64,000 bases of DNA from Candidatus Moraniibacteriota bacterium (GCA_037201605.1 JBBCGM010000002.1:208697-272696); one strand, 5' to 3'; shown: positions 1-64,000, counted from the first letter of the stretch. Notes: generated by a model not told the origin, from the sequence alone. Made by a program: numbers and translations.

Positions 1-1
1 C

Positions 2-634
2 GAACTGAAATTGGAGTACGAATGGGGTGATGATTCCGAAGATACGCGCACGTACAAGATCTTTATCGATGCCGAGAAGCCGGTTTTCGCCACCGCACCA
101 GCCAGTCTGACCAAGCGTCCCGGGGAGAGCATCTGGTGGAGCGCGACTGACAATGACCGCATCGATTACTACCGCTACGAACTAAACGGCCGTATTTACA
201 AGACCGAGAAGACTGACTTCCTTTTCCCCAAGGATCTCGGCCCCGGCCTCTATGGCCTCGTTATCAAAGCCTATGACCGAGCTGGCAACACAGCTACCCT
301 CCCCTTCTCTATCCGCGTGCCAGGGAGCGGTGGGACAAGTCAGGGCGATTCAAGCACTCCTGCGCCTGTCGCGGAAACGCCAGCCGAAACCACGCCAGAA
401 GCTCCTGTCGCGCCTGCCCCTCTAGTTCCAACCGCACCGACCCCTTCTACTCCTTCGCAAAATACGCCTATCCAGAGCGATGATGAGATCAGTGACACTC
501 CTCTGCAGCAAGAAACAGAAAATGCCGGCTGGCTCTTCTCGCTGCCGATCATGGCTGCCCTCGTAGGCGGGGCGGCCCTCCTCATCGGCGGGTTCTTCTA
601 CTGGCTGCGCTTCCTCCGCAAACGCCCCTTCTAA
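2..634 (+). CDS. Surface protein, 5'-truncated by the window edge (Ig-like domain, Pro/Thr/Ala-rich linker, C-terminal TM anchor)
   Basis: The frame is open from base 2 (ELKLEYEW...) to the stop at 632-634. It has a KAYDRAGNTATLPFSI motif typical of bacterial Ig-like adhesin domains and a PAPVAETPAETTPEAPVAPAP linker. A hydrophobic stretch LFSLPIMAALVGGAALLIGGFFYWL is followed by a basic tail RFLRKRPF. Confidence 0.6.
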   Translation, partial: ELKLEYEWGDDSEDTRTYKIFIDAEKPVFATAPASLTKRPGESIWWSATDNDRIDYYRYELNGRIYKTEKTDFLFPKDLGPGLYGLVIKAYDRAGNTATLPFSIRVPGSGGTSQGDSSTPAPVAETPAETTPEAPVAPAPLVPTAPTPSTPSQNTPIQSDDEISDTPLQQETENAGWLFSLPIMAALVGGAALLIGGFFYWLRFLRKRPF

Positions 635-662
635 AATACTCATTCCGAAAGCGGGCCTCCAA

Positions 663-1771
663 ATGGAAACTTTGGAACTTTCCTCCTTAAACGCGCTCCG
701 CAAATTGCCGCATGTCGGCAATCGGACGCTTGAAACGCTCCTTGAGTACTTCGGGAGCGCCGAAGCGGCCTGGGAAGCAGCTGATGGGGCTTTGAGCAGC
801 ATGCCAAAACTTTCCGAAGCTGCACGCCATGCACTGCTTCGGCGTTTTTCGCTCGTTCATCGCGAAGCCGCTGGGAAGCGCTTCTCGCCGAAGGCATCGA
901 ACTTATTCCAAAGAGCTCACCGCGCTTCCCCAAGCTTCTCTCCGAGATCCCGGACGCACCACCGCTTCTCTATGTACGCGGAAACTTTGATTTCACCAAA
1001 CCGCAAGCAATGCTCGCGGTCGTCGGCGCACGCAAACACTCAGCCTATGGAACACGCGTTACCGAGCGCCTCGTTTTTGATCTTGCCAAGCGCGGCGCTG
1101 TCATCGTTTCGGGACTGGCGTTCGGCATTGACCGGCTAGCGCACGAAGTCACCCTCACTGCCGAGGGCCAGACGCTCTCTGTTCTTCCGGGAGGGCTCGA
1201 TGATGCAGGTATTGCGCCCCGTACCCATCTTGCTCTCGCCCATGCCATTACCGAGCACGGAGCGCTCATAAGCGAATGGGCGCCGGGCACCGAGATTACG
1301 CCCGCTCATTTCCCCGTGCGAAACCGGCTCATCGCAGGCCTCTGTCTGGGAACCCTCATTATCGAAGCGGAAGAGGCGAGCGGCAGCCTGATCACCGCCT
1401 CCCTCGCTACTGACTACAATCGCGACGTCTTTGCTATTCCCGGGCCCATCTTTTCCTCAACGTCGGACGGTCCTAACCGATTGCTTCAGCGCGGCGCAAA
1501 AGCTATTCTCATGGCCGAGGATATTTTCTCCGAATACGCAGCCTTCTTCGAAAAAGTCGCGGGAGAAAAACAAGCAGCTTCAAACGCCGAGGCCTTCCTG
1601 ACAACTGAGGAAGAACGACTCGTAAACTGCCTCGGATCCGAACCAATGCATATCGATACAATCATCAAAATTTCCGGCCTGGAAACGGGCCAGGTGCAGT
1701 CGCTTTTGACCCTCCTCGAACTCAAGGGGGTTGCAAAAAACATTGGAAGTATGCATTATACTCGACAGTAA
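663..1771 (+). CDS. dprA: DNA-processing protein DprA/Smf, frameshifted in this assembly
   Basis: ORF 1010..1771 has the DprA Rossmann core (AVVGARKHSAYG, GLAFGIDRLAHE, FPVRNRLIAGL, EAEEASGSLITA) and a C-terminal winged helix. Its frame stays open upstream (GIELIPKSSPRFPKLLSEIPDAPPLLYVRGNFDF). The DprA N-terminal helical domain (LNALRKLPHVGNRTLETLLEYFGSAE) lies in ORF 663..1139 in another frame. The frames switch around 860-890. The dprA-topA order is a common synteny. Confidence 0.85.
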
Positions 1772-1786
1772 TCCCGCATCCTTTTC

Positions 1787-3969
1787 ATGAAACTTCTCAT
1801 TGTCGAGTCCCCTTCCAAGGCTAAAACCATCGAAAAATATCTGAAGCACGAATACAAAGTCGTTGCTTCCGTTGGACATATCCGCGACTTGCCGAAGTCG
1901 AATAAAAAAGCCATCGACATCGAGGGCGGCTTTGTGCCGCATTACGAGATTTCTGCGGGCAAGGAAGCCATCGTCAAGGAGCTCAAAAAACTGGCTGAAA
2001 AAAGCTCGGAAGTGCTTCTCGCCACCGACCCCGACCGCGAAGGCGAGGCCATTGCCTGGCACGTGGCAGAGACCTGCGGCCTGAAACACCCCCAGCGGGT
2101 ACTCTTCTATGAGATTACGCCCACCGCCGTCCAAGAAGCCCTAAAACACCCGCGGCCTCTTGATCAGAATTTGCGCCGTGCCCAGGAAGCGCGCCGGGTA
2201 CTGGATCGGCTCGTCGGCTACGACCTCTCCGGCCTTATCTGGAAAAAGGTACGCTATGGGCTCTCTGCCGGACGCGTTCAGTCGCCGGCGCTCCACATTC
2301 TCGTCATTCGAGAACAGGAAATCCGAGCCTTCGTACCGGAGGCCTATTTCGTCGTCTCTGCCGATCTGAAACTTCCCTCGGGAGAGACGATCACGTTCCT
2401 CGCAGGCGAAGAACCGCGCGATCGCAAAAAAGTCGAGGAGTGGCTGGCTCTGGGACAGAAGGGCAAGTGGCGTATCAAAGGCATCAAAGAAAGCGAGGTG
2501 GCTCGTCGGCCCAAACCGCCCTTTACTACTTCGACACTCCAACAAGCCGCTAGCTCCCGCCTCGGGTTTTCACCGAGCCGCACCATGCGGATAGCTCAAA
2601 AACTCTACGAGAAGGGCGCTATCACCTATATGCGCACCGACAGCCAAAACCTTTCTAAAGAGGCCCTCGGATCCATTTACCGCACCATTGAAGAGGAATT
2701 TGGCAAGAATGCCGTATCGCCACGCACCTACAAAACCCGCAGCAAGAATGCACAAGAAGCCCACGAGGCTATCCGTCCTACCAACGCCTCGCAAAAAAAT
2801 GCCGGGGTCACCGAGGAAGAAAAGAAGCTCTACACTCTGATCCGCAACCGAACGCTCGCATCCCAGATGACGGAAGCGAAAGTGCTGCGCACCAAAATCA
2901 CAGCCAACATCGACAGTCCCGGGCTGCCCGATTTTGGAGTCAACGGTTCACGTCTGCTGTCTCCCGGCTGGCTAGCCCTGGACGCGCGGGGCCTTGAGGA
3001 AGACACTCTTCTGCCGCAAGTAAGCGAAAACGATCCGCTTTCCCTGGTCCGCATGCAGGTCGAAGACAAGGAAACTCAGCCGCCGAGCCGTTACTCTGAG
3101 GCGGGACTGGTCAAAGAACTCGAGAAGCGCGGTATCGGAAGACCGAGTACGTATGCTTCGATCATCAAGACCATCCTGGACCGCGGCTACACCATAAAGG
3201 AAGGCAAGGCGCTCCAACCGACGGAAACCGGCGAAGTAGTCGATAACTTTCTCTCCAAATACTTCTCGGAGTTCGTTTCAGAGACTTTTACGGCCGGGAT
3301 GGAAGATGAGCTCGATGAGATTGCAGCGGGTACGCGGGACTACGAGAAAACGCTTCGTGATTTCTACGGCCCGTTTACCAAGGAGGTCAAATCAAAAGAA
3401 AAGCTAGAAAAAATGACGAATCTCGGCGACGCTCCCGAAGGTATGCGCTGCCCGGTGTGCGGCGGGCCGATGATTGTAAAGCTCTCCAAGAACGGTACTT
3501 TCCTTTCCTGTGCACGCTTCCCCGAGTGTACTGGCGCACGCACCATGGAAGGCGAAGCGCTCGAAGGCCCCAAGGAAACAGGCGAGCTGTGTCCCGACTG
3601 CAAAGACGGACGCCTCGTCGAACGCGATGGACGCTACGGACGCTTTATTTCGTGCTCCAACTACCCTAAGTGCAAGTACATCAAACGCGATCCGGAAAAC
3701 CAGAAAACCACCGGGTGAAGTGCCCGGTGTGTCAAAAAGGCGAAATGGTCGAGCGACGGGGCCGCTACGGCCTCTTCTACAGCTGTTCCAATTATCCGGA
3801 GTGCAAGAACGCTATTAAGGCCAAACCTACCGGCAATCTCTGTCCTCTGTGCGGTTCGCTTATGATGGAGGGTACCAAGACCATTCCCGAGCGCTGTTCC
3901 AACAAAGCCTGTCCGAACCACCGGCCCGATAAGCTCACGGAAAAACCGAAAACGAAGAAAAAGGCCTGA
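1787..3969 (+). CDS. topA: DNA topoisomerase I, frameshifted at a G-run near the 3' end
   Basis: The 643-aa ORF has Toprim and TopoIA core motifs (LIVESPSKAKTIEKYL, TDPDREGEAIAWH, RVQSPAL, ITYMRTDS) plus CxxC zinc ribbons. ORF 3670..3969 continues with two more ribbons (CPVCQKGEMVERRGRYGLFYSCSNYPEC, CPLCGS). Adding one G to GGG at 3713-3715 reads ...QKTTGVKCPVCQ... through the TGA at 3716-3718. Confidence 0.95.
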
Positions 3970-3978
3970 GACAAAAAA

Positions 3979-4010: not shown

Positions 4011-4022
4011 TCGAGCCGCCGT

Positions 4023-4771
4023 TTATTCCAGAAAACCGAGGAGGAACATTACCAGAACGCCGGCTACCAACGCCAGAAATTGGGCAAAGGATTCGCCTGC
4101 ATCCCGAGTACGCTGCAATTTCGGAATAAGATCGGACATGGCGATATAGATGAAACCACCGGCCACAATGGGAACAAAAAGGGCCGTTGCTGCTTCCGAA
4201 GACTGGCCAGCAAGAAGAAGATGAGGGCTCCGGCAAAAGCAGAGAGAGCAGTCAGGAAATTCACAAAGAGCGCCCTCTTGCGCGTAAAACCGGAATAGAT
4301 GAGTACCGCAAAATCGCCGATTTCTTGCGGAATTTCGTGCAGGATGACGGCAAACGTCGTGGCAATACCCACGGGCACGCTTGCCATGAACGCCGCCGCG
4401 ATAATGATGCCATCGAGAAGATTGTGGAACACGTCAGAGAGTAAGACGAGCTTGCCGACCGGGTGAATACCGCTCGCATCGGCATCTTCACCGTGGTGGT
4501 GCCAATGCAGGGCTTTCTCCAGAAGGAAGAAAAGGACAATACCCACGATAATGAGGAGACTTATCGTGGTAGGCTCAGTCGCTTCCTCGAAAGCCTCAGG
4601 AATGAGATGGATAAAGGCGTCTCCAAGAAGCGCTCCAGCGGCCAGACTGATGAGAAAGCCGATCCAGCGTTCCAGGTCAGTAACGCGCCAAAAGAAGGTA
4701 AAGATGCCGACGAGCGAAATGAGGCTGACCGCCAAAACGCTTAGAAACGTATAGAGATAGATAGAAGCCAT
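4023..4771 (-). CDS. ZIP-family divalent metal (zinc) transporter, frameshifted near the 3' end
   Basis: It has multiple TM segments and ZIP signature helices (HNLLDGIIIAAAF, HEIPQEIGDFAVL). After ...FFLLASL the listed ORF turns to nonsense. The -1 frame instead gives the canonical ZIP C-terminus ATALFVPIVAGGFIYIAMSDLIPKLQRTRDAGESFAQFLALVAGVLVMFLLGFLE, with a stop at 4025-4023. The switch is at about 4197-4201. Confidence 0.85.
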
Positions 4772-5210: not shown

Positions 5211-5216
5211 AGCCCT

Positions 5217-20453: not shown

Positions 20454-21792
20454 ATGCAGCCTTCCATTTTCAAAGCCTACGATATCCGCGGTCTGTACCC
20501 GTCAGAAATAGACGAGGAGGCCGCTTATCTGATCGGCAGGGCTACCGTCGCCCAGTTTTCCCTTACCCGTCTTGCCGTTGGCCGGGATGCCCGCGCATCC
20601 AGCCCGGCGCTTTTTGAAGCTTTTGCCCGCGGGGCCTGCGAACAAGGTGCCGATGTTATCGACCTAGGCCTCCTTACCACGCCCATGGTCTACTTCGCCG
20701 CTTGGCGCTACCCCGAAATAGAGGCAGTCGCTTCCATCACGGCCTCGCACAATCCGCCCGAATACAACGGGATGAAAATAGCACTCAAAAATGCCGTACC
20801 GGTGGGGAGCGAGAGCGGCCTCGAAGACATCAAGCGCCGAGTCTTAGAAAAAGATTTTCCGGAAAGCGCGCGTACTGGTAGCCTTACCTCCAAAGAGATC
20901 AAAACCGATTACTACCGCTACTTCGGAGCCTTTGCCGATTTCGGCGACTGGCGCGCGCGTGTAGTTATCGATACCGCTAATGCCATGGGCGTTTTGGAAC
21001 TGCCCATTTTCCAAGAACGACATAAAAACCTGGAACTCGGACTCCTCTACGACGACCTGGAGCACCCCTTCAGCGCCCATGAAGCCAATCCGCTGAAAAC
21101 CGAAACGCTTGATGAATTGCGGACAGCCGTCACTAGCCACCAGGCGAGCTTAGGTATCGCTTTCGACGGGGATGCCGATCGCGTCGGCTTCGTGGATGAA
21201 AAAGGGATTCCCATTCCCATGGATCTCGTGACGGGACTAATTGCGGAAATTGTTTTGGAGCGCCATCCTGGAGCCACGATTCTTTACGATCTGCGCTCCT
21301 CACGCGCCGTCAAAGAAATAATCGAGGAGCGGGGAGGAAAAGCCCTTGAATGCAAAGTGGGCCACGCCAATATTAAGCGCCAGATGCGCGATACGGGCGC
21401 TCTTTTTGCCGGCGAACTCTCCGGCCACTACTATTTCGAGGAAAATTCGATGGCGGAAGCCGGCTCTTTGCCGGCTCTCATGCTCTTAAACCTCATGGCC
21501 AAAACGGGGGAAACCCATTTCGGAGCTGGTAAGTGGCCTGCAGCGCTATGCTCATTCGGGTGAGATCAATAGCGAGGTAGCCGACAAGGACGCGGTGCTT
21601 ACAAAACTGAAAGAACAATATGCCGACGGAGAACAAAGCGAGCTTGACGGCCTGAAAGTAAGCTACCCCGACTGGTGGTTTAACGTGCGCGCTTCCAATA
21701 CCGAACCCTTGCTTCGTCTCAACCTGGAAGCCGAGACTGTAGAGGCAATGGAAGCCAAAAAGAGCGAACTGCTTGCCATCATCCGCGGATAG
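20454..21792 (+). CDS. Phosphomannomutase/phosphoglucomutase (alpha-D-phosphohexomutase), frameshifted
   Basis: It has the catalytic loop SITASHNPPEYNGMK, the metal loop FDGDADR and the sugar loop GELSGHYYF. ORF 20454..21563 ends in nonsense (THFGAGKWPAALCSFG*). The next frame reads ISELVSGLQRYAHSGEINSEV... and continues into ORF 21595..21792 (domain 4, FNVRASNTEPLLRLNLEA). The switch is at the C-run 21514-21516. Confidence 0.9.
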
Positions 21793-28878: not shown

Positions 28879-28949
28879 TCAAAAAAGGCTTTTTCAAGCC
28901 CTCGTATACTAGCAAAATCGGTGCACTGCGTCAAAGCGCTTACTTTTCA

Positions 28950-45887: not shown

Positions 45888-46091
45888 GCCATACTCCGTT
45901 CCCGCTGAAGTGCTGGTCGAGGTTTTGGAATATCTAACCTGGCTCCCGGGGCTGTGACCCCCGTGCCGATACCCACATTGCCGGTTGAATCTATAGCAAG
46001 GAGAGCTGAAGAGCCGACGGTGAAGCCGGAACCGATGAGGTAGTAGCCGGTGGTCTGATCAACGCCGGAGTAGTAGTCCTGGGCAGAGCCA

Positions 46092-48892: not shown

Positions 48893-51800
48893 CTACGAGG
48901 AGCTGACCGGAAGTACCAGCGCTGGTGACTTGGACCGGGCTCGTGCCGTTGCCGTAGAGAACACCGTTGGTGGCGAAGGTAGTTGCCCCCGTGCCGCCGT
49001 TTCCAACGGGGAGGGTACCGGTGACTTCGGAAGTAAGGTCAATGCTTGTTCCAAGGTACTCGCAACGGTGATAGTGCCGGAACCGTTGGTGACGGTGATA
49101 CCGGAGCCCTGAGTAAGGGTTGCCAGTGTGTAGCCAGTGCCATTGCCGATGAGGAGGTTACCGTTCCCGGCAGAAGAGCCGTTGACGCCGGTGCCGCCTC
49201 GGGAGACGTTGAGCTGGGCTTCGGCAGCCAAGCTGCTGGTACCTGTCCAGTAGGCCACATAGCCATTGGTGCCGGAGCCGGTAAGACCGGCGGAGAAGCT
49301 CGCACATTCCCAAACATTGGTCGAATCATTCCAAGAAAGACCCTGGCCATTAGAACACCCTTGTAACAATCCAAGCTCATTGGAACCACTGCCCTGGAAT
49401 TCCAGGCCAGAGTTGGAAGAGGTGGAGCCGGTGCCGTCGGCAGAGTCTAAGAGATCAATGGCAATCGTCGGCGTGCCTCCTTCGCTTGCGCTTGAGCCAC
49501 TGATACCGTTGCCATTGGTGATGCTCGCCACGTAGTTGCCGGTGGTGTGAGTGCTAAGCGTGATGAGATTGTTCAAGCTGGTTGCGCCTGTGCCGCCGTT
49601 TCCAACAGGGAGGGTACCCGTCACTTCAGTCGTAAGATCAATGGAGGTGCCCAAGGTTGAGGCGATGGTGATGGTGCCGGAACCGTTGGTAATAGTGATG
49701 CCGGAGCCTTGGGTAAGAGTAGCCAATGTATAGCCAGTGCCATTGCCAATGAGAAGTTGTCCATTAGAAGCAGAGGAGCCGTTCACGCCGGTGCCTCCAC
49801 GGGAAACGTTGAGCTGATTCTCACCCTGAAGCGAGGAAGATCCGCTAAAGTACGCTGCCTGACCAGAGGAACCAGAGGCCGTGGCTCCACCGACACCCGA
49901 CACGGAAGCACAGCTCCACTCTTCAGTCGTAGTGTTGTAAGCCAAAACATCGTTGTTGGCACATCCTTGAAGAAGGGTAAGTTCGTTGTTACCCGTTCCT
50001 GCAAATTCCAGACCTGAGTTGGAGCTTGTGAGGCCGGTGCCGTCATCGCTGTCCAAAAGATCAATGGAGAGTGTAAGAGTCGCGCCTTCAGAGCCAGCGG
50101 CTCCGCCTGTAATACCGTTGCCACTGGCAAGGGACTGGACGTAGTTACCCGTTGTGTCTGTTGTCAGTGCCACGGAGTTGGCAGCAATGGTCAGCGCGCC
50201 AGTATTTGAAAGAGTCGCATCACTTGAAAGGGAGACAAAAGTAGGCACGCCTGAGCCGTTAGCTACGAGGAGCTGACCGGAAGTACCGGCGCTGGTGACT
50301 TGGACCGGGCTCGTGCCGTTGCCATAGAGGACGCCGTTCGGGGTAAGCGTCGTTGCCCCCGTGCCGCCGTAGGCAACCGCGACTGCTGTCCCCTGCCAAG
50401 TAGCGCTGGTGAATGTTTGGCCGCCATCGATGAGTGCCACCGTGCCTCCGACATTCGGGAAGGTGTAGGTACGGTCAGCACTGAGGTCCGCAACATCCAG
50501 CGTCCCGTAGAAAGTAGCTCCGGCTGATTCCAGAATACGGAGTTCTGAGGAAGCATTGTTGAGCACGATATCGAAAGCGCCTGTCTGATTCCAGTCAGAT
50601 GTAAGAACACCGAGGGCAATCGTCGGCGTGCCGCCTTCGCTTGCGCTTGAGCCACTGATACCGTTGCCGTTGGTGATGCTGGCTACGTAGTTGCCGGTGG
50701 TGTGTGTTCCTAAAGTAATGAGATCGTTCAAACTCGTCGCTCCCGTTCCGCCATTGGCAACCGGGAGGGTACCGCTGACAGCCGTGGCCAGGTTCACCTT
50801 GCCCCAAGCAGGGGCGACACCGACACCGCCTGAAAGGAGGACGTTGCCGGTAGCCACGTCAGCCAGAGCTGCGAGCGTGGTAGTGCCGCTCGCGTAGAGG
50901 ATATCGCCGATGGTGTAAGAACCGATGCCGGTGCCGCCTCGGGAAACAGAAAGCTGAGCTTCTCCGGAAAGGGTGCTGGTGCCGTTCCAGTAGGCAACGT
51001 AGCCGTTGGTGCTGGAGCCGGTGACACCACCGACACCAGACACACTGGCACACTGCCAGACGTTGGTGGAGTCATTCCAAGAAAGGACCTCGTTGTTGGC
51101 ACAGCCCTGGAGGACGGTCAGTTCGTTACTGCCGCTCCCCTGGAATTCCAGGCCAGAGTTGGAAGAGGTGGAGCCGGTGCCATCAGCTGAGTCAAGAAGA
51201 TCAATGGCAATCGTCGGCGTACCGCCTTCGCTTGCGCTTGAGCCACTGATACCGTTGCCGCTTGCGATGCTGGCTACGTAGTTGCCGGTGGTGTCGGTGG
51301 TGAGGGCAACGGCGTTAGCGCTGATGGTGAGGACACCAGCATTGGTGATGGTGGCATCGCTGCTCAGGGTAGCGAAAGTAGGGGCACCGCTGGAAACACC
51401 GAGAAGGAGCTGGCCATTCGTACCAGCGCTCGTGACCTGGACAGCGCCGGTGCCGTTGCCGTAGAGCACGGCGTTTGCGGTAAAGGTGGTCGCTCCCGTT
51501 CCGCCATTGGCAACCGGGAGGGTACCGCTGACAGCCGTGGCCAGGTTCACCTTGCCCCAAGCAGGGGCGACACCGACACCGCCTGAAAGGAGGACGTTGC
51601 CGGTAGCCACGTCAGCCAGAGCTGCGAGCGTGGTAGTGCCGCTCGCGTAGAGGATATCGCCGATGGTGTAAGAACCGATGCCGGTGCCGCCTCGGGAAAC
51701 AGAAAGCTGAGCTTCTCCGGAAAGGGTGCTGGTGCCGTTCCAGTAGGCAACGTAGCCGTTGGTGCTGGAGCCGGTGACACCACCGACACCAGACACACTG

Positions 51801-52000
51801 GCACACTGCCAGACGTTGGTGGAGTCATTCCAAGAAAGGACCTCGTTGTTGGCACAGCCCTGGAGGACGGTCAGTTCGTTACTGCCGCTCCCCTGGAATT
51901 CCAGGCCAGAGTTGGAAGAGGTGGAGCCGGTGCCATCAGCTGAGTTCAAGAAGATCAATGGCAATCGTCGGCGTACCGCCTTCGCTTGCGCTTGAGCCAC
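48893..52000 (-). CDS. Giant tail-fibre-like surface protein, fragment (1035 aa)
   Basis: It has the same modules. The last ~60 aa are out of frame (TLEQALTLLPKSPVPS...). The correct frame from about 49060 reads TLGTSIDLTSEVTGTLPVGNGGTGATTFATNGVLYGNGTSPVQV...VPTFVTLGTDATLAANG and runs straight into ORF 46092..48878. Confidence 0.75.
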   Translation of the reverse strand: MAQAQAKAVRRRLPLIFLNSADGTGSTSSNSGLEFQGSGSNELTVLQGCANNEVLSWNDSTNVWQCASVSGVGGVTGSSTNGYVAYWNGTSTLSGEAQLSVSRGGTGIGSYTIGDILYASGTTTLAALADVATGNVLLSGGVGVAPAWGKVNLATAVSGTLPVANGGTGATTFTANAVLYGNGTGAVQVTSAGTNGQLLLGVSSGAPTFATLSSDATITNAGVLTISANAVALTTDTTGNYVASIASGNGISGSSASEGGTPTIAIDLLDSADGTGSTSSNSGLEFQGSGSNELTVLQGCANNEVLSWNDSTNVWQCASVSGVGGVTGSSTNGYVAYWNGTSTLSGEAQLSVSRGGTGIGSYTIGDILYASGTTTLAALADVATGNVLLSGGVGVAPAWGKVNLATAVSGTLPVANGGTGATSLNDLITLGTHTTGNYVASITNGNGISGSSASEGGTPTIALGVLTSDWNQTGAFDIVLNNASSELRILESAGATFYGTLDVADLSADRTYTFPNVGGTVALIDGGQTFTSATWQGTAVAVAYGGTGATTLTPNGVLYGNGTSPVQVTSAGTSGQLLVANGSGVPTFVSLSSDATLSNTGALTIAANSVALTTDTTGNYVQSLASGNGITGGAAGSEGATLTLSIDLLDSDDGTGLTSSNSGLEFAGTGNNELTLLQGCANNDVLAYNTTTEEWSCASVSGVGGATASGSSGQAAYFSGSSSLQGENQLNVSRGGTGVNGSSASNGQLLIGNGTGYTLATLTQGSGITITNGSGTITIASTLGTSIDLTTEVTGTLPVGNGGTGATSLNNLITLSTHTTGNYVASITNGNGISGSSASEGGTPTIAIDLLDSADGTGSTSSNSGLEFQGSGSNELGLLQGCSNGQGLSWNDSTNVWECASFSAGLTGSGTNGYVAYWTGTSSLAAEAQLNVSRGGTGVNGSSAGNGNLLIGNGTGYTLATLTQGSGITVTNGSGTITVASTLEQALTLLPKSPVPSPLETAARGQLPSPPTVFSTATARARSKSPALVLPVSSS

Positions 52001-53936: not shown

Positions 53937-55545
53937 GGCAATCGTCGGCGTACCGCCTTCGCTTGCGCTTGAGCCACTGATACCGTTGCCGCTTGCGATG
54001 CTGGCTACGTAGTTGCCGGTGGTGTCGGTGGTGAGGGCAACGGCGTTAGGGCAACGGCGTTAGCGCTGATGGTGAGGACACCAGCATTGGTGATGGTGGC
54101 ATCGCTGCTCAGGGTAGCGAAAGTAGGGGCACCGCTGGAAACACCGAGAAGGAGCTGGCCATTCGTACCAGCGCTCGTGACCTGGACAGCGCCGGTGCCG
54201 TTGCCGTAGAGCACGGCGTTTGCGGTAAAGGTGGTCGCTCCCGTTCCGCCATTGGCAACCGGGAGGGTACCGCTGACAGCCGTGGCCAGGTTCACCTTGC
54301 CCCAAGCAGGGGCGACACCGACACCGCCTGAAAGGAGGACGTTGCGGTAGCCACGTCAGCCAGAGCTGCGAGCGTGGTAGTGCCGCCTCGCGTAGAGGAT
54401 ATCGCCGATGGTGTAAGAACCGATGCCGGTGCCGCCTCGGGAAACAGAAAGCTGAGCTTCTCCGGAAAGGGTGCTGGTGCCGTTCCAGTAGGCAACGTAG
54501 CCGTTGGTGCTGGAGCCGGTGACACCACCGACACCAGACACACTGGCACACTGCCAGACGTTTGGTGGAGTCATTCCAAGAAAGGACCTCGTTGTTGGCA
54601 CAGCCCTGGAGGACGGTCAGTTCGTTACTGCCGCTCCCCTGGAATTCCAGGCCAGAGTTGGAAGAGGTGGAGCCGGTGCCATCAGCTGAGTCAAGAAGAT
54701 CAATGGCAATCGTCGGCGTACCGCCTTCGCTTGCGCTTGAGCCACTGATACCGTTGCCGCTTGCGATGCTGGCTACGTAGTTGCCGGTGGTGTCGGTGGT
54801 GAGGGCAACGGCGTTAGCGCTGATGGTGAGGACACCAGCATTGGTGATGGTGGGCATCGCTGCTCAGGGTAGCGAAAGTAGGGGCACCGCTGGAAACACC
54901 GAGAAGGAGCTGGCCATTCGTACCAGCGCTCGTGACCTGGACAGCGCCGGTGCCGTTGCCGTAGAGCACGGCGTTTGCGGTAAAGGTGGTCGCTCCCGTT
55001 CCGCCATTGGCAACCGGAGGGTACCGCTGACAGCCGTGGCCAGGTTCACCTTGCCCCCAAGCAGGGGCGACACCGACACCGCCTGAAAGGAGGACGTTGC
55101 CGGTAGCCACGTCAGCCAGAGCTGCGAGCGTGGTAGTGCCGCTCGCGTAGAGGATATCGCCGATGGTGTAAGAACCGATGCCGGTGCCGCCTCGGGAAAC
55201 AGAAAGCTGAGCTTCTCCGGAAAGGGTGCTGGTGCCGTTCCAGTAGGCAACGTAGCCGTTGGTGCTGGAGCCGGTGACACCACCGACACCAGACACACTG
55301 CACACTGCCAGACGTTGGTGGAGTCATTCCAAGAAAGGACCTCGTTGTTGGCACAGCCCTGGAGGACGGTCAGTTCGTTACTGCCGCTCCCCTGGAATTC
55401 CAGGCCAGAGTTGGAAGAGGTGGAGCCGGTGCCATCAGCTGAGTCAAGAAGATCAATGGCAATCGTCGGCGTACCGCCTTCGCTTGCGCTTGAGCCACTG
55501 ATACCGTTGCCGCTTGCGATGCTGGCTACGTAGTTGCCGGTGGTG
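53937..55545. repeat. Tandem 753-bp repeat, block II (~2.1 copies), same unit as block I but with many 1-nt indels
   Basis: Shadow ORFs 54562..54780 and 55315..55533 are identical. The unit matches block I except for homopolymer-length differences (for example 54340, 54378, 54556, 54850, 55015, 55050, 55296) and a 14-bp duplication at 54036-54063. Confidence 0.85.
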
Positions 55546-57298
55546 TGAGTGCTAAGCGTGATGAGATTGTTCAAGCTGGTTGCGCCTGTGCCGCCGTTCG
55601 CTACGGCTATCGTCGTGCCATTCCAAACGCCACTGGTAATAGTGCCGACCGTTGTGATATCGGTGAGATTGCCGCTTGTGATAATCGTTCCGGAAACATT
55701 CGGGAAATTGATAGCCCGATCAGCCGTTGGGTCCACGACGCCAAGAGTAGTTTTCAAAACCGTTCGCCGTCGCTCCCTCAAAGGCAACTGTCGAGGCAGA
55801 GACATCGAAAAAGAAACCGGTATCGGTGGTTGATCCACCGACGACCAAGTCGTCGGCCGTGTCGGTCAGATACGTGTATGATCCGGCGCTGGTCCAGTCG
55901 CTGGTGCCGCAGTTTTATTGGAACAGACCAGGTTTCCGATGTAGCATTCCACGCAAGCACCTGATCATTACTGCAGCCACCGATCAGACGGAGTCCGCTC
56001 GGCGTCGTTTCGAGACCGGAATTGGAAGCAGCAGTAGCGGTCGTACCGGTCGTAGTGACATCAAGACCAATAGTGATGAGGCCGGGACTATTGGTAATGT
56101 CGATACCGTCAGCGGGATCAAGCGTATTGAGCGTAAAGCCGCTGCCGTTGCCAATAGGGATCGAGCCATTGCTCGCCGATGAAGCATCTAGGCCAGTGCC
56201 ACCGCGCACCGGACTGAGCTGGGCTTCACTGCCGAGCGAGCTGGTTCCGCTCCAGTACGTCACATACCCAGTCGTACCCGTACCAGTGAGTCCTGCTGAA
56301 AAGCTCGCGCATTCCAGATATTGCTCGCATCATTCCATGCCAATCCCTGGCCGTTTGTACAGCCCTGGAGCAATGCTAATTGGTCCCCGTCCGGCCCGGC
56401 CAATTCGAAGCCGGAATACGAAGACGTAACGCCAGCACCGTCAGCAGTTTCCAAGAAGTCCACGCTGCCCGTTGAAATATCGCTAAAGGTGCTGCCATCG
56501 TTTGAAAACTGCCAGCTGCCGGTAGCGCCATTGTAACGGAGTGCCGGCGGATTATTCGCTGAAGAAACTGCCAAATCGAACGTACTATTCACGCCCGTAC
56601 CGTTGCCGATGGTAAATATTTCCGAATCTGTTCCGGTATCCGTGTTCTGCTCGTGTGCAAGACCCAGACGATCATCATTCCCCAGTACCAGTTCATCATC
56701 ACCATCTCCGGTCGGCAGCTGGTCGATCTCGATCTTACCGCCATTGCCGAGAATAACCAGATCACCTTCATTGGTACCGACGCTGCGTCCGTCAAGCGTC
56801 TGAGCGCTTTGTGCTGTTACCGCTGTCTGTGCAGTTCCAGCACTTATGGCACGGGGTACGGCACCCAGGTGCTTGCGAGGGACGATTTCCGAATCCGTTC
56901 CGATGCGCAAACCGATGTAGTAATTCCCCGTTGTGAAATCGATGCTCGCCGGAAGCGGATTGGCCGTCCCGAGCGAAACGCGAAAAATACCGTTCTGAAC
57001 CGTAATCGTTTGGTTTCCTCCCACAAACTGGCATCAGCGTTTGAAGGATAAGGGTCAGCCGTAGTGCGGTCGGTAGCGTAGAGTGCAAAGCGAACTTCAT
57101 AATCACCATTGGGGATAAGATGATTTTCTTTATCAAAAGGCTTGCAGAGAGAGAAATTTGGTTAATTGAGTTCTCGGCAGACTGAGCAAAAACAGGTCGC
57201 AGGCTATATTGCCACCCCATGAGCATCCCCATCACCAGAGTGATTATCAGGGAAGTGTATGCTGTTTTTCGATTTTTGTTTTTTACATATTCCGGCAT
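53937..57298 (-). CDS. Giant tail-fibre-like surface protein, 5' third including the signal peptide; heavily frameshifted (more than 10 indels)
   Basis: ATG 57298 gives MPEYVKNKNRKTAYTSLIITLVMGMLMGWQYSLRPVFAQSAENS (signal peptide). Fragments 56792..57298, 56260..57024, 55778..56263, 54864..55838, 54060..54857 and 54005..54295 continue one another in shifting frames. One example is KPFDKENHLIPNGDYEVRFALYATDRTTADPYPSNADASLWEET then TITVQNGIFRVSLGTANPLP. Confidence 0.7.
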
Positions 57299-58235: not shown

Positions 58236-59335
58236 ATGCCAAACCACGACGCACATCGCTTCATCGTCATCATGGCCGCGGCTCCGGTACCCGTTTATGG
58301 CCACTTTCGAGACGCACCAAACCTAAGCAGTTTCAAAAACTGATAAGCGACAAAACACTTTTGCGGGAAACATTTGAACGCGCTCTACGCGTTGTCTCCA
58401 CAGAACAGATCTTCGTCTCCACAACGCGTGCCTATGCCACCGAAGTGCTTCAGGAATTACCGGAGATAAGCCAAAATCAGCTTATCCTGGAACCCGAAGC
58501 CCGCAACACGGCCGCCGCTATCGGCCTCGTCGCTACCTGTCTTTTGGCAAGAGATCCAGAAGCGCTGGTAGCGACCATTGCATCCGACCATGCCATTCAT
58601 AATCCAGAAATGTTCGTCTCCGCGCTCGAAAGCGCTTTTTCTGCGGTCACTGCTCGTCCGGAAGCACTCGCCACCGTCGGCATCAATCCAACCAAACCCG
58701 ACACGGGACTGGGCTACATCAAGATGGGCCAAGAACAAGGCGTCGCTTCCGGCGCGCGCATTTTTTCTGTCGAAGAGTTCAAAGAAAAACCGGACCGAGA
58801 GACAGCCGAGAGCTACATCGCCGACTGGGCGCTATCTGTGGAATGCCGGCTACTTTATCTTTTTCGCCAAAACCTTTGCTCTCTGGACGAAAAACTTCGC
58901 TCCGGACCTCGCTCAAACACTTCAAGCTATTGTGGCCCTGCCCGAAGACGCTTCGGAAAAAATTCTCACGCTCTATAAGACGCTTCCTAAAGAAGCAATC
59001 GAGCCGCTCATCATCGAACGGCTTTCTGAAAACGAGAGACTCGTTATACCAAGCGCGCTACGCTGGAGCGACGTCGGCAATTGGAATACGCTCCATGAAT
59101 TCTTGAAGGCGGAAAAAAACCTTTCGGTCATTCTACCGAAAGGTGCAGTGGACCTGGGGAGTGAGAATATCCTGGTACAAAGCAACAAAAAATCGTCGCT
59201 ACTCTGGGACTGAAAGATGTGGTTATCATCGACACGCCTGACGCACTCTTGATAGCCGACAAGCACCTGTCGGAATCAGAAATGAAAAAACTCCTCGAAA
59301 AAATCGAGGAGGAACGTCCTGGAGAATTTCTCTGA
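58236..59335 (+). CDS. manC: Mannose-1-phosphate guanylyltransferase (GDP-mannose pyrophosphorylase); 3 frameshifts
   Basis: MPNHDAHRFIVIMA is followed, after a shift at ~58278, by GSGTRLWPLSRRTKPKQFQKLISDKTLLRETFERA. Further motifs are EPEARNTAAAIGL, SDHAI, GINPTKPDTGLGYIK and EKPDRETAESYIA. After a shift at ~58830 it reads YLWNAGYFIFFAKTF...RWSDVGNW. After a shift at the A6 run 59187-92 it reads IVATLGLKDVVIIDTPDALLIADKH. The stop is at 59333-35. Confidence 0.85.
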
Positions 59336-59344
59336 TCACCACCT

Positions 59345-60310: not shown

Positions 60311-60315
60311 ACCGT

Positions 60316-61113
60316 TTAGATAATTTTTCGTTTCTTTTCTTCTTGCTGTTCCTCTGCCTCGCGAGCGATAATTTCGCGCGCGACGCCTTTATAGGCGCGG
60401 GCACCCTTGGAGAGTGCGTCGAAATCAAGAATGGATTTGCCGAAACTCGGCGCTTCTGCCAGGCGCACCGAGCGCGGGATGAGGCTTTCGAAGACCGGTC
60501 CGGAAAATGCGTGCGCACTTCGGATACCACTTGGCGGGCCAGCCGATTGCGCCGATCGTAGAGCGTAGGAGGGCGCCCATGATTTTCAGGTTCGGCTGTA
60601 AATGTTCGCGCACCAATTCGATGGTACCCAAAAGTTGTGACAGTCCCTCAAGAGCATAATACTCGGTCTGTACCGGAATGACTACTTCATCGGAGCCACC
60701 AGTCCGTTATAGTCAGGAGTCCCAAAGAAGGCGGGGCTATCTATCAGAATGTAGTCGTAGTACGGTCGGATCTGGCGCAGCACGCTGTGCAGACGGAACT
60801 CGCGATTTTCCAAATGTACCATCTCGATTTCGGCGCCAGCCAAATCCTGAGCCGCAGGGATGATATGAAAATTTTCCGGATCGGTACGCAGAATAATCTC
60901 CTGGGGCGCGAGCCCTAGAATCATAGCGTGGTAGAGATTCTTTTCAATCCGGCGCGCATCGATACCGATGCCGCTTGATGCATTGCCCTGCGGATCAAGA
61001 TCAACGAGAAGCACCTTGCGCCCCATTTCCGCCAAAAAACGGGCCACATTGATAGTGGAGGTAGTCTTGCCGACACCGCCTTTTTGATTTACAAAACCGA
61101 TAATTTTAGCCAT
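60316..61113 (-). CDS. parA: Chromosome partitioning ATPase ParA/Soj; at least 5 frameshifts
   Basis: [24 protein letters not shown] (deviant Walker A) and [14 protein letters not shown] are present. After ...YILIDSP the frame must shift repeatedly to read [80 protein letters not shown] and [26 protein letters not shown]...KKRKII. The stop is at 60318-16. Every shift is at a short homopolymer. Confidence 0.85.
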
Positions 61114-61121
61114 GTACACGC

Positions 61122-61150
61122 AGTATATTGCATTGACACAGAGGAATCAA
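61122..61150 (-). promoter_or_regulatory. Candidate parAB promoter giving a leaderless or near-leaderless mRNA
   Basis: Minus strand: TTGATT (61150-45), a 17-nt spacer, TATACT (61127-22), then 8 nt to the ATG (61113). Confidence 0.4.
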
Positions 61151-61202
61151 TTGCGTATCCTACTCCCATATTCTTGGCTTAGGAAAAGCAATTTTACTCC
61201 AC

Positions 61203-61285
61203 GCCGGGGTGGTGGAATGGTAGACACAGAAGACTCAAAATCTTCCGAGAGCAATCTCATGAGGGTTCAAGTCCCTCCCCCGGCA
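61203..61285 (+). tRNA. tRNA-Leu (anticodon CAA)
   Basis: The sequence is GCCGGGGTGGTGGAATGGTAGACACAGAAGACTCAAAATCTTCCGAGAGCAATCTCATGAGGGTTCAAGTCCCTCCCCCGGCA. The acceptor stem is GCCGGGG/CCCCGGC, the anticodon stem GAAGA/TCTTC with loop CTCAAAA, and there is a long variable arm. A possible promoter is TTGACA (61133-38), 17 nt, then TATCCT. Confidence 0.93.
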
Positions 61286-61294
61286 CATTTTGAA

Positions 61295-61320
61295 GAATTA
61301 CGTAATAAATTACGTAATTC
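61295..61320. terminator. Perfect 12-bp inverted repeat between tRNA-Leu and folD (possible bidirectional terminator)
   Basis: gaattacgtaat (61295-306), aa, then attacgtaattc (61309-320). It overlaps the folD stop codon (61312-10). The stem is AT-rich, so its function is uncertain. Confidence 0.35.
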
Positions 61321-62167
61321 GATATGCCGCTTCACGAGCAGCGGCTTCCGTTACACGGGCCAAAAGAAGGGCCACCGTGACCGGGCCGACGCCGCCAGGC
61401 ACGGGCGTGTTAAAAACCCTTCTTCTCAGCGAGTCCCACGGGGTCTACATCGCCCTGTACTCCGCTTTTGGTAGATACGATGCCGCCATCGATCACGATG
61501 GCGCCTTCTTTGAACATCTCCCCCTTGAGAAGATGCGGCTCTCCCAACGCCGTGACAATGACATCCGCCTGAGTCAAAAACGGGAGCGGGAGTTCGCGCA
61601 CGCTCTCCAGGACAGCCACATGAGTCTCCAGTCCGAGATGTTCCAACACTGCGCGCATCACATCTCCTAGAAGCGTTGATTTGGCGAGTACTAGTCCTCT
61701 TTTGCCGGTAAGTTCCTCTTCGTCTGCAGCTGATACGATCAATTCCCGCACGGCGCGCGGAAAGACCGGGAGAGAACGCTCGTCGCCTCCCAGAAAATTT
61801 TGGGAGCGTGGCCGGATGGAAACCGTCCGTATCTTTTTCCGGCAGAATAGCATCCACGAAACGGTCGGGGTCAAGCTGACGGGGCAACGGCAACTGCAGC
61901 ACGATGCCATGAATGTCCTCGCGATCATTGAGCGCATGAATGGCAAAAAGGAGCTCGCTTGCCGAAACATTTTCGGGAAAAAGCTGTTTCTCAACGCAAT
62001 GCCGACGCTTTTTGCCTGGCGCTCTTTGAGATTCACGTAGAGATGCGAGGGCGCATCAGTGCCCACCAAAAGCACGGCCAGTCCCGGTTGGATACCCTGA
62101 GCATGAGTATCTTCTTCGATTCTTCGGAGAATTTTTTCGCGAGCGGCTGGCCGAAGATTTTTTGCAT
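61310..62167 (-). CDS. folD: Bifunctional methylenetetrahydrofolate dehydrogenase/cyclohydrolase FolD; at least 4 frameshifts
   Basis: Frame-corrected, the gene reads MQKIFGQPLAKKILRRIEEDTHAQGIQPGLAVLLVGTDAPSHLYVNLKERQAKSVGI...ENVSASELLFAIHALNDREDIHGIVLQLPLPRQLDPDRFVDAILPEKDTDGFHP...GKRGLVLAKSTLLG...ADVIVTALGEPHLLKGEMFKEGAIVIDGG...GDVDP...TPVPGGVGPVTVALLL. The last shift is at the A5 run 61412-16. Confidence 0.85.
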
Positions 62168-62173
62168 ACTTTC

Positions 62174-62939
62174 TTAGAGGAAAAAGAGGAAGAACACGAT
62201 AGCTACCAGCATCCGGTAAATACCAAAGGAGACAAAAGTGTGTTTTTTGGAAAAGCTGATGAGAAAGCGCACGGCAAGGAGCGGGCGATCAGGAAAGCGG
62301 CGACAAATCCCGTAGCGAGAAGCAGGACTTCTTGGGACGTCCAGACAAACGTACTTGAGAAAGGTCGAAGACCGACGCGGCCAAGCATGGTCGGGACGCC
62401 AGAAGAAACGAGAATTCCACAATCACGGAGCGCTCAAAACCAAAGGCGAGTCCGCCTAAGATCGTAGCGGCGGCGCGGGGAAACGCCGGGGATAACGGCA
62501 AAGGCCTGGCAAATACCTACCAGGAAAGCCTGTCGGTAGCTCACGCCTTCGAGGGTGCGTACGCTTTTCGGCTTCCCCTGCTGAAACGTTCCAGCCCGAT
62601 CATCAGGATACCGCCCACAAAGAGCGCAACAACGACTACGAGCGGTGAGCGAAAAGGCTTTTGATGAAGCGGGTAGAAGAGACTTCCGACGATAAGCGAT
62701 GGGACAAGCGCTACTACCAGCGCTTATTGAGCTGCAATCGCGAGTTAAGCGGCGGAAGTAGAGCGCTACTACCGCCAGAATAGCTCCCAGCTGGATCACC
62801 ACTTCGAAAGTCGAAGGAAAGCGGAACCGGTAAGCCCCAGGATTTCCGATACCAAAATCAAGTGGCCGGTCGAAGAGACGGGCAGGAATTCCGTCAGGCC
62901 TTCGACGATACCGAGAATGAGGGCATCGAGAAAATGCAT
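62174..62939 (-). CDS. uppP: Undecaprenyl-diphosphate phosphatase (UppP/BacA); multiple frameshifts
   Basis: ATG 62939 gives [36 protein letters not shown]. Other frames then give [66 protein letters not shown] and a C-terminal [18 protein letters not shown]. Confidence 0.8.
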
Positions 62940-62942
62940 AGG

Positions 62943-63620
62943 CTAGAAGAGGCTTTGCGGCGAGCGCACGTCCGGACCCGGAAGCGGAGCGTGTTCGGTC
63001 TTGGCAGATTCCAAAAGCTTTTTATTCTCGTTGAGCTCGGCAAGGGTGTCCCAATCGCGGAATTCCGGATACGTTTCCAAGAGCTTTTCCAAAACCTCGA
63101 CCGTGACGCGCACATCGCCAGCGCCCGTATGCGCCGAGGCGTTGCTCCTTGCCAACGTAACGCTTGTAGGCAGCGGAGAGGTTGCGCGGCGCAAACATAT
63201 TGCGCGGTTCCTTGGCATGGTAAAGGATCTTGGCATCAAGGATCCTCTTGGCGAAAAATTGAAGCTTTTGCCCACGCTTGCGAATTCCCCGGTAAGAAAC
63301 GGCAGGTCGAAACCGATGATGTTAAAGCCCCCCACATCTGCTCCGTCGAACATATTCCAAAGAGTATAGGCATGCACGGCAAAACGCGGCTCATCGGCTA
63401 TATCGGCATCAAAGATATGATGGATGCGGCTCGCCTCCTCCGGAATAGGCATGCCGGGATTGAAGCGCTGGACGGCAGCTACTATCTGCCCGTCCGGCAT
63501 GATCTTCTCATAGGCAAGCTCGATGATGCGATCTTCGCCAATGCCGAGACCTGTTGTTTCAAGGTCGAAAATAATAAGCGGCCGCTCGAGCGGCAGATAG
63601 TCTGGGATGGAAGAGCGCAT
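62943..63620 (-). CDS. DEDD-family 3'-5' exonuclease (DNA polymerase III epsilon-like) with two compensating internal frameshifts
   Basis: Exo I is LIIFDLETTGL and Exo II is GFNIIGFDLPFL. The segment FSPRGSLMPRSFTMPRNRAICLRRATSPLPTSVTLARSNAS is out of frame; the alternative frame reads AKRILDAKILYHAKEPRNMFAPRNLSAAYKRYVGKEQRLG. The sequence then returns to AHTGAGDVRVTVEVL (Exo III H...D). Confidence 0.8.
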   Translation of the reverse strand: MRSSIPDYLPLERPLIIFDLETTGLGIGEDRIIELAYEKIMPDGQIVAAVQRFNPGMPIPEEASRIHHIFDADIADEPRFAVHAYTLWNMFDGADVGGFNIIGFDLPFLTGEFASVGKSFNFSPRGSLMPRSFTMPRNRAICLRRATSPLPTSVTLARSNASAHTGAGDVRVTVEVLEKLLETYPEFRDWDTLAELNENKKLLESAKTEHAPLPGPDVRSPQSLF

Positions 63621-63650
63621 GGCAGGAATGTTACAGACAGAATAGGGGCA

Positions 63651-64000
63651 TTATACCACGAGGCTCACCAGCTTTCCGGGTACGACAATCACTTTTCGGG
63701 GTGCATTCCCGCCGAGCAAAGCTTGGATTTTCGGCTGCCGGAGCGCTGCTTCTTCCAGTGCTTCACGTGACACATCAGGAGAAGCTTCAAATTGTGCACG
63801 GACCTTGCCATTCACCTGCACAACGATCGTCACTATTTCCTCTTGAATCTTGGAAGCGTCGTACTTGAAGGAAGATAGACTCTTTGTTACCGAGTCCTTC
63901 CCAAAGTTCCTCCGCTATATGCGGCGCGAACGGCGAGAGAAGAATAAGAAACGTCCTGAATATTTCCTGAGAAACATCCGGCTTCTTTTCCATTTCATTG
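63651..64000 (-). CDS. leuS: Leucine--tRNA ligase, 3' end (continues beyond the window); 1 frameshift
   Basis: ORF 63651..63833 ([29 protein letters not shown]...[14 protein letters not shown]) is the typical LeuRS C-terminal domain. ORF 63787..63993 ([27 protein letters not shown]) is the preceding anticodon-binding region in another frame. Confidence 0.85.

Follow-up and report, generated by a model that had tools for sequence, protein, structure and literature searches.

The window, the whole stretch of 64,000 nucleotides analysed here, is a segment of a metagenome contig from a Moranbacteria (CPR) bacterium (GenBank contig JBBCBH010011046.1, positions 35,522-99,521). It carries at least 45 verified frame-breaking indels. 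The long genes rel, pilB, groEL, ychF, trpS, rnj, the SBP gene and the Wzy_C/TPR gene are intact, as a first-pass annotation of the stretch had stated, and a giant gene (about 4,500 codons) is cut into roughly ten hypothetical proteins. An alternative genetic code is ruled out, since the breaks are changes of frame and not in-frame stops.

The source data, according to passages of the source study, are a co-assembly of four samples (n=4) made with hifiasm-meta at default settings from PacBio HiFi reads (accuracy >99%, mean length 18.3 kb); the study's methods passages name no polishing step, and it gives the share of reads mapping to contigs as only 41%. The raw reads are represented here by Logan, the de Bruijn assemblies built from the k-mers of a single raw HiFi run (SRR28211700), from which 31-mers seen once are dropped (at least two occurrences required). 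Logan derives from the same raw data as the contig and is not another platform. About 20 kb of the 64-kb window are represented in it, where each 31-mer needed at least 2x; one Logan contig of 13.9 kb was viewed at the DNA level over 964 nt only, its remainder being deduced from identical proteins. Orthologue references come from 80 Moranbacteria loci of relatives, obtained by a scan of genome contigs. Plain tblastn passed straight over the compensated shifts in parA, and a protein-to-DNA aligner that tolerates frameshifts was therefore written and used to place the shifts. A codon-usage Viterbi path, which calls too few shifts where they stand close together and cannot be relied on in repeat-rich genes, served as a guide only.

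The first 54 kb contain the following sites:

870..871, plus strand: dprA frameshift, C in the window and CC in Logan
3713..3715, plus strand: topA frameshift, GGG in the window and GGGG in Logan
4197..4201, minus strand: ZIP transporter frameshift, one base missing (Pfam and Logan)
21503..21516, plus strand: phosphomannomutase (PMM) frameshift, one surplus base in ACGGGGGAAACCC (Pfam, ORF repair and Logan)
28890..28894, unstranded: intergenic run contraction between secG and ftsW, T5 in the window and six in Logan
29264..29266, minus strand: ftsW frameshift, one base missing at AAA (Pfam frames)
38768..38770, minus strand: FG-GAP gene frameshift, one base missing at AAA (ORF repair)
45950..46135, minus strand: probable compensating pair in the giant gene, a base extra at ~46130 and missing at ~45975 (Viterbi path and frameshift-aware alignment)
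49034..49055, minus strand: giant-gene frameshift (tblastn frame switch)
51945..51946, minus strand: giant-gene frameshift, TT versus T (repeat alignment and tblastn frame switch)

Comparison with the raw-read k-mers restores some of these genes. Three Logan contigs align with the window over 4,923 columns with no mismatch and three one-base gaps, each gap being a shorter run in the window, and the Logan versions restore intact dprA and topA. Logan contig L006 differs from window positions 1-2050 by one gap (0 mismatches) and encodes an intact DprA of 369 aa, whose Pfam domains DprA_N and DNA_processg_A fall in different frames in the window. The third Zn ribbon of topA carries on in the next frame at 3700-3715; contig L090, aligned to 3465-5371 with 0 mismatches, has its single gap at the topA G run, where topA continues. 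Repaired TopA has 727 aa, and homologues in relatives have 717-739 aa. Contig L088 matches 27942-28904 with 0 mismatches and one gap.

The five sites that Logan can test do not all behave alike: three breaks are absent from it (dprA, topA and the intergenic run at 28890) and two are present (ZIP and PMM). The Pfam Zip model matches in two frames, at model positions 164-263 and 265-322, which join at 4190-4205. L090 is identical to the window at this site, and Logan holds the same 235-aa product. PMM domains I-III and domain IV likewise lie in different frames, with the III/IV switch at 21515-21562, and both fragments (369 aa and 65 aa) occur in Logan. Removal of one G from ACGGGGGAAACCC gives a clean PMM of 445 aa; to judge from the reading frame, the surplus base most plausibly belongs to the G run, G5 becoming G4. 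No intact ZIP or PMM allele was found in the 90% identity clusters of the two proteins. Since Logan reproduces both breaks, the breaks cannot all be artefacts of the hifiasm contig, and the ZIP and PMM frameshifts may be genuine features of the DNA. The first-pass annotation had reasoned that high-accuracy reads at good depth reproducing the indels would point to real pseudogenisation or heterogeneity; the ZIP and PMM indels recur in at least two raw reads, a minimal depth, and those in dprA and topA do not. The chances that these two frameshifts, and only these, are genuine and recent inactivations in this population are about even.

For the ftsW site, the FG-GAP site and 54-64 kb, Logan yielded no contig. 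In ftsW, positions 8-280 and 279-354 of the FTSW_RODA_SPOVE model match in two frames that meet at 29261-29267, and repair gives 672 aa. One A added at 38768-70 joins the 1475-aa and 248-aa calls of the FG-GAP gene into a single ORF of 1814 aa in which the FG-GAP repeat pattern is unbroken. In the giant gene, tblastn matches to P0166, P0168 and P0171 with contiguous query coordinates change frame at 49034..49055, where the two ORFs overlap by 262 nt. The pair at ~46130 and ~45975 is a probable one, suggested by alignments to P0170 and P0176 (of low identity) and by a repeat motif readable in the bridging frame. All of the break sites named in the first-pass annotation are present, exactly or within a few bases of its coordinates. 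This holds for topA (GGG 3713-15), ZIP (~4197-4201), ftsW (AAA 29264-66), the FG-GAP gene (AAA 38768-70) and the TT at 51945-46, where it had compared one sister repeat with T and three sister copies turn out to have T. At PMM, the frameshift near 21514-16 stands, but the missing base proposed at CCC is instead a surplus base in ACGGGGGAAACCC.

The density of breaks changes abruptly along the contig. Positions 1-54,033 hold 9 verified sites (0.17 per kb) and positions 54,034-64,000 hold 36 (3.6 per kb), a 22-fold difference (binomial p = 1.7e-21) that three further probable sites (~43118, ~45975 and ~46130) leave unchanged. The sharp rise claimed beyond ~54 kb is thus a step at 54,034. The dense zone had been given as 54-64 kb; its start holds, but the block runs on beyond the window's end and reaches 70.3 kb or more, a length of at least 16.3 kb against a mean read of 18.3 kb. 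Gaps between sites within the block are near exponential (coefficient of variation 1.09), which is what random errors would give. parB is intact within the dense zone, the exception already picked out in the first-pass annotation. The sites of the block that lie inside the window are these:

54034..54061, minus strand: 14-nt tandem duplication, AGGGCAACGGCGTT twice, frame-shifting, at the start of the dense block
54344..55300, minus strand: repeat copies V2 and V3 of the giant gene, seven one-base indels (deletions at 54344, 55015 and 55299; insertions at 54386, 54561, 54852 and 55054)
55752..57138, minus strand: giant gene, N-terminal part, six shifts (insertion at 55752; deletions at 55909, 55926, 56312, ~57010 and 57138)
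58279..59191, plus strand: manC, three shifts (deletion at 58279, insertion at 58823, deletion at 59191 in an A6 run)
60499..60735, minus strand: parA, five shifts (insertion at 60735; deletions at 60709, 60695, 60567 and 60499)
61415..62103, minus strand: folD, four shifts (deletions at 62103 and 61996; insertions at ~61803 and, in an A5 run, ~61415)
62177..62939, minus strand: uppP (BacA), seven shifts, the gene missed entirely by gene callers
63140..63250, minus strand: 3'-5' exonuclease gene, compensating pair of shifts on which four orthologues agree
63867..63885, minus strand: leuS shift inside the window (frameshift-aware alignment)

The repeats of the giant gene supply an internal control. 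Two 754-nt repeat copies (54234-55546) differ from their sister unit at 50736-51489 by seven one-base indels and no substitution in 1,315 nt, and a duplicate of 1,426 nt in the clean zone shows 100% identity. Alignment to the orthologue P0163 independently gives seven shifts of matching types, each within about 20 nt of a V2 or V3 indel. The 14-nt duplication is lacking in two sister copies, and the orthologue alignment puts the shift at 54048. Positions of the shifts in the N-terminal part are concordant across P0162, P0163, P0165 and P0167. A query with fragments from 55.8-58.3 kb returned orthologues of the giant gene and no near-identical independent copy. No usable homologue was found for 57.3-58.3 kb (minus strand), and the tally omits two shifts that the Viterbi path suggests there.

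Breaks also fall in genes other than the giant gene. In manC, NTP_transferase matches at Pfam positions 8-174 and 173-240 and the ManC_GMP_beta-helix match alternate between frames, and the frameshift-aware alignment concurs. Four different orthologues place the parA shifts at identical positions, the AAA_31 model is split at 139/140, and repaired ParA is 91% identical to the ParA of L024. The repaired uppP product spans positions 1-257 of the 257 of PF02673 (E = 2e-63). In the exonuclease gene, the RNase_T match ends at ~63258 in the called frame. Six additional leuS shifts lie beyond 64 kb. The frameshift-aware comparison with orthologues that the first-pass annotation had proposed repairs 46 shifts in ten genes, loci beyond 64 kb included, and meets no in-frame stop in about 4,250 codons; the repaired genes include parA, folD, uppP, the exonuclease gene, leuS, atpD and atpG, and repaired AtpD is 87% identical to the proteins of relatives. 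The individual predictions hold up here as well, sometimes as undercounts: the manC breaks put at ~58278 and in the A6 run 59187-92 lie at 58279 and 59191 with an unlisted third at 58823, all five parA sites recur, the folD break in the A5 run 61412-16 (~61415) is joined by those at 61803, 61996 and 62103, and the compensating exonuclease shifts expected at ~63255 and ~63125 are found at 63250 and ~63140. Eight products of the 54-64 kb stretch were looked up in Logan, namely two fragments of the giant gene (265 aa and 254 aa), manC, parB, parA, folD, the exonuclease and a fragment of leuS, and none is there; two products from past 64 kb, another leuS fragment and one of ATP synthase, are absent from it too.

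The lesions are of few kinds: indels of plus or minus one base and the one 14-nt duplication, and nothing else. Each of the single-base indels verified at the DNA level (11/11) alters the length of a run, with a chance expectation of about 2e-4 by arithmetic from the window's run table; the true runs are of 1-6 bases only, and the longest mononucleotide run in the window is 8. Among sites located by protein alignment, 45% have a run of at least 4 within 5 nt, and for random positions the figure is 21% (Mann-Whitney p = 0.002). The link to homopolymers drawn in the first-pass annotation is therefore real but modest, and the word is loose, as many sites fall in runs of 1-3 bases. Its statement that most breaks need an added base is right for the window, where 30 bases are missing and 15 extra (~2:1), but fails beyond 63.9 kb, where 11 are extra and 2 missing.

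The provenance of the contig, the indel-only signature, the intact dprA and topA of the raw reads and the step in density are matters of direct observation. They are best read as meaning that the frame breaks are almost all single-base sequencing errors in a low-coverage, unpolished HiFi contig and not genome decay, a reading with a probability of about 0.9. The inference of long-read error with uneven coverage and no effective correction, made at the outset from the window alone, is borne out by the intact Logan alleles, the indel-only repeats and the absence of nonsense codons. The platform had been guessed as long-read or flow-based; it is long-read (PacBio HiFi), and the flow-based option falls away.

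Contigs made by hifiasm are spelled from corrected reads, without a consensus step. The window would be a stretch of hifiasm-meta contig from a rare Moranbacteria population present at roughly 1-3x HiFi, a depth indirectly suggested by the sparse k-mer coverage. At 1-3x the assembler would probably be unable to correct reads mutually, and the contig would be spelled from the reads and not from a polished consensus, so that the residual CCS errors of each read would persist. Such errors would be almost wholly one-base insertions or deletions that change mononucleotide runs. The first 54 kb, where there is about 1 indel per 5 kb, would then come from reads that were good or had been partly corrected, and the stretch of at least 16 kb from 54,034, where there is 1 indel per 190-340 nt, would follow a low-pass read or two of ~Q23-Q25; the 14-nt duplication at its start may be the scar of a read junction. 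Aligned to its Illumina amplicon OTU, the 16S sequence of the only Moranbacterales MAG in the study shows 0 mismatches and 2 gaps, and the abundance of the Moranbacterales amplicon OTU is 0.03. The 14-nt duplication, being atypical of CCS error, speaks against the error reading, and the switch from missing to extra indels at ~63.9 kb is not obviously explained by a single-read origin. The dense block, whose >16 kb approach the mean read length, may come from more than one read.

Real heterogeneity of the population, with the contig following minor-strain molecules that carry true indel variants, is improbable. The data are a co-assembly of four samples, and the dprA and topA alleles of the contig differ from the k-mer majority of one run, as a minor variant would; but 36 frame breaks within 10 kb of essential genes would leave a cell inviable, and no SNP accompanies the indels in the 4.9 kb and 1.3 kb compared, which argues against strain divergence. 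Genuine massive pseudogenisation, in which the organism or the segment is decaying and the genes are dead, is very unlikely. CPR genomes are reduced, and the recurrence of the ZIP and PMM breaks in raw reads would suit such decay. A mixed lesion spectrum (nonsense codons, larger deletions, substitutions) and relaxed constraint were looked for, but the 46 repaired shifts come with 0 nonsense codons and the 1.3 kb of repeat controls with 0 substitutions, and the repaired proteins are still 87-91% identical to orthologues. The broken set includes leuS, folD, parA, uppP, ftsW, topA and ATP synthase, dprA and topA are intact in raw reads, and decay is not expected to start abruptly at a single coordinate. 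It is scarcely credible that the dense block is true sequence, from a single molecule of a dead or hypermutating CPR cell with high run slippage and about 50 real indels, and genuine inactivation of ZIP and PMM alone is far more likely. Rescue by programmed ribosomal frameshifting or transcriptional slippage can be dismissed, for although A5 or A6 runs hold a few of the sites (59187-92, 61412-16), orthologues in the 80 Moranbacteria loci are single-frame, the runs at the sites are of 1-6 bases and the window's longest is 8, single genes carry up to 7 shifts of both signs, and elsewhere in the giant gene the same repeat unit carries no shift.

Sequencing error as the source of nearly all breaks has a practical and not a biological value. 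Gene calls, pseudogene counts, completeness and repeat counts of this contig are unreliable, and other low-depth contigs of the same HiFi co-assembly are probably equally so. The deposited annotation misses uppP and presents leuS, parA, folD and ATP synthase genes as fragments; the label 'HiFi' is no guarantee of frame accuracy at ~1-3x depth. Only the ZIP and phosphomannomutase breaks merit biological follow-up.

Reductive pseudogenes, as in Mycobacterium leprae and recent insect symbionts, mix nonsense codons, larger deletions and substitutions and spare core essential genes. The many split genes of the window recall them, but neither the mixed lesions nor the sparing of core genes is seen here. 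Nanopore, 454 and Ion Torrent artefacts, which show as fragmented gene calls and low IDEEL scores, belong to other platforms and favour longer runs and, strongly, deletions, whereas both signs occur here. Residual CCS/HiFi errors differ from the present pattern in that many runs here are of 1-3 bases, one lesion is a 14-nt duplication and two sites recur in at least two reads. They resemble it in being indel-only, in changing run length and in a density that changes stepwise along the contig, and an error rate of 0.3-0.5% accords with reads just over the Q20 cut-off. The likeness extends to the errors of low-depth, unpolished hifiasm and hifiasm-meta assemblies of CCS reads, the platform and assembler that the source study's passages document for this record.

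By exact protein matches, the window corresponds, in unchanged orientation, to positions 35,522-99,521 of JBBCBH010011046.1. This contig belongs to assembly GCA_037975565.1 and spans 346,371 bp; its proteins are labelled 'MAG: Candidatus Moraniibacteriota bacterium' at NCBI. The accession comes from a deadwood metagenome study in which four samples (16.1 Gb altogether) were sequenced as PacBio Sequel II HiFi reads (mean length 18.3 kb, CCS accuracy >99%) and co-assembled by hifiasm-meta r058 with default settings (PMC11613949). Mapping places just 41% of the reads on contigs, and the study's single Moranbacterales MAG derives from the co-assembly; the assembly methods, as excerpted, describe no polishing step (PMC11613949). 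The 16S of this MAG aligns to the matching Illumina amplicon OTU, of abundance 0.03, with 0 mismatches and 2 gap openings across 255 columns. The organism is rare, and the HiFi assembly that yielded the sequence is unpolished. The first-pass annotation had suspected long-read or flow-based sequencing; the platform is long-read, namely PacBio HiFi, but not flow-based.

Break density steps up 22-fold at 54,034, from 0.17 to 3.6 per kb (9 verified breaks in 1-54,033 vs 36 in 54,034-64,000; binomial p = 1.7e-21), and three further probable breaks in the first zone leave this result unaltered. The rise noted from the sequence past ~54 kb is real, but the dense stretch continues past the window's end, with 1.9 breaks per kb still present up to 70.3 kb, the limit of the DNA examined.

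Pfam model coordinates cross frames in dprA, topA, the ZIP transporter gene, phosphomannomutase, ftsW, manC, parA, and folD, confirming that the named breaks exist. When one base is edited at the run concerned, TopA reads as a clean, full-length protein of 727 aa (homologues span 717-739 aa), FtsW as a clean 672 aa, the FG-GAP protein as a clean 1814 aa, phosphomannomutase as a clean 445 aa, and ZIP as an unbroken frame of ~250 aa. The base addition proposed at CCC in phosphomannomutase is not borne out; the frames need one base taken out of ACGGGGGAAACCC, and deleting one G from it appears to read best.

Raw reads contradict some of these breaks. In Logan, each run is assembled separately as a de Bruijn graph (k = 31) from which singleton k-mers are dropped (PMC12424806). 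SRR28211700 is among the HiFi runs of the study, and three of its Logan contigs align to the window across 2,051, 1,908, and 964 columns. They show 0 mismatches and precisely three gaps of a single base each, and at every gap the window carries the shorter run:

871: dprA run, C in the window vs CC in Logan
3713-15: topA run, GGG in the window vs GGGG in Logan
28890-94: intergenic run, 5-mer in the window vs 6-mer in Logan

With the longer dprA and topA runs, DprA is therefore intact at 369 aa, and so is the C-terminus of TopA. Logan covers only ~20 of the 64 kb, which fits a read depth of roughly 1-3x; counterparts are found for 0/8 products looked up from 54-64 kb and 0/2 fragments from beyond 64 kb.

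The ZIP frameshift (4197-4201) is also present in Logan contigs at the DNA level, as are, at the protein level, both fragments left by the phosphomannomutase frameshift (21503-21516); no other break recurs in the raw-read k-mer assembly. The 90% identity clusters of the two proteins contain no intact allele. With at least two reads each, the two breaks are either real mutations or systematic consensus error. In this population they are candidate inactivating mutations. The attribution of the breaks to error is thus supported overall, but these two may be genuine.

The repeats of the giant gene, together with a duplicate elsewhere in the window, provide an internal control:

43701-57298, minus strand: giant gene, after frame repair one gene of ~13.6 kb and ~4,500 aa
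50736-51489: reference copy of its 754-nt tandem unit
54234-54989 and 54989-55546: dense-zone copies
9416-10841 and 13566-14991: 1,426-nt duplicate used as control
54034-54061: 14-nt tandem duplication (AGGGCAACGGCGTT x2)

The dense-zone copies differ from the reference unit by seven one-base indels and 0 substitutions over 1,315 nt. Four of the indels add a base and three remove one, in true runs of 1-4 bases, and orthologue-guided alignment that makes no use of the repeats places same-type shifts within ~20 nt of all seven. The T to TT change claimed at 51945 is seen in the clean-zone copy next to the reference unit. The 1,426-nt duplicate is perfectly identical; it sits within two hypothetical genes that are paralogues (686 aa and 1090 aa) and could be a recent gene conversion, a duplication, or an assembly duplication. 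The 14-nt duplication is missing from sister repeat copies and coincides exactly with the start of the error-dense block within the tandem repeat. It may be the scar of a read join, so repeat copy number there is uncertain.

Comparison with homologues shows that the hypothetical fragments at 55.8-57.3 kb form the N-terminal part of a single large gene, which starts at 57298 and has 14 shifts down to 54048 by orthologue alignment. As deposited, the giant gene is split into roughly ten hypothetical proteins. It contains a Peptidase_S74 (endosialidase chaperone) domain, placed ~260 residues short of the C-terminus, and adjoins the gene for the 1814-aa FG-GAP protein.

For 58-70 kb, 80 Moranbacteria loci were retrieved and their proteins aligned to the DNA by frameshift-aware dynamic programming. 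The five shifts claimed in parA recur at identical positions with four orthologues, and repaired ParA is 91% identical to one relative's protein. The compensating pair in the exonuclease gene is likewise recovered, and its RNase_T match ends early. Other genes are broken as described, but more often than listed: folD has four shifts, manC a third at 58823 besides the two claimed, and uppP/BacA (62177-62939, minus strand) seven. Once repaired, uppP/BacA matches the BacA/UppP model end to end; because of its seven frameshifts it is absent from the gene calls, the sole call there being a 74-aa ORF on the opposite strand. Seven shifts fall in leuS (one within the window), two in a response-regulator gene, three in atpD, and one in atpG; alignment to Moranbacteria orthologues finds none in atpC or in parB, which is unbroken as claimed. 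The precomputed Pfam list gives a NUDIX match in a 619-aa leuS fragment (window-equivalent 64329-66188; 4123-5982 of L002, the sequence running past the window end), either a real insertion or a frameshift by-product; LeuRS of relatives spans 844-976 aa.

The breaks bear the indel-only, run-length signature of CCS errors. Over the ~4,250 codons repaired, shifts number 46 and in-frame stops 0. All 11 single-base indels verified at the DNA level change a run's length (chance expectation ~2e-4, by arithmetic from the window's run table), and runs of at least 4 bases lie near protein-located sites at about twice the rate seen for random positions (p = 0.002). The proposed homopolymer link holds for run-length changes, but many affected runs are very short. 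Spacing within the block is approximately exponential (coefficient of variation 1.09), making the intact parB an unremarkable long gap. Missing bases outnumber extra ones 23:12 in 54-64 kb and prevail up to 63.3 kb; extra bases prevail from 63.9 kb on (11:2 in 63.9-70.3 kb). Different underlying reads tiling the two stretches may account for this flip.

Together, the three independent tests (raw reads, repeat control, and lesion spectrum) support sequencing error over genome decay, which fails them. Strain heterogeneity fails the same tests, and programmed frameshifting or slippage is dismissed by them as well. As for how such errors would persist, hifiasm-meta contig sequence is spelled from reads, and at 1-3x depth the assembler was probably unable to correct them. 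One or two reads of ~Q23-Q25 (0.3-0.5% indels) would then underlie the block, which runs from 54,034 to 70,310 or beyond; reads of this quality pass the Q20 HiFi filter.

Elsewhere in the window, the rRNA genes appear unlinked, since a TPR protein gene (beginning at 34953), and no 16S gene, adjoins the 23S/5S pair at 31060-34485:

31243-34485, minus strand: 23S rRNA gene, with a group I intron at 31560-31783
31060-31166, minus strand: 5S rRNA gene, following the 23S rRNA gene

The window's frame breaks are an instance of the familiar problem of fragmented gene calls from homopolymer indels (e.g., PMC9262707), in this case on HiFi data.
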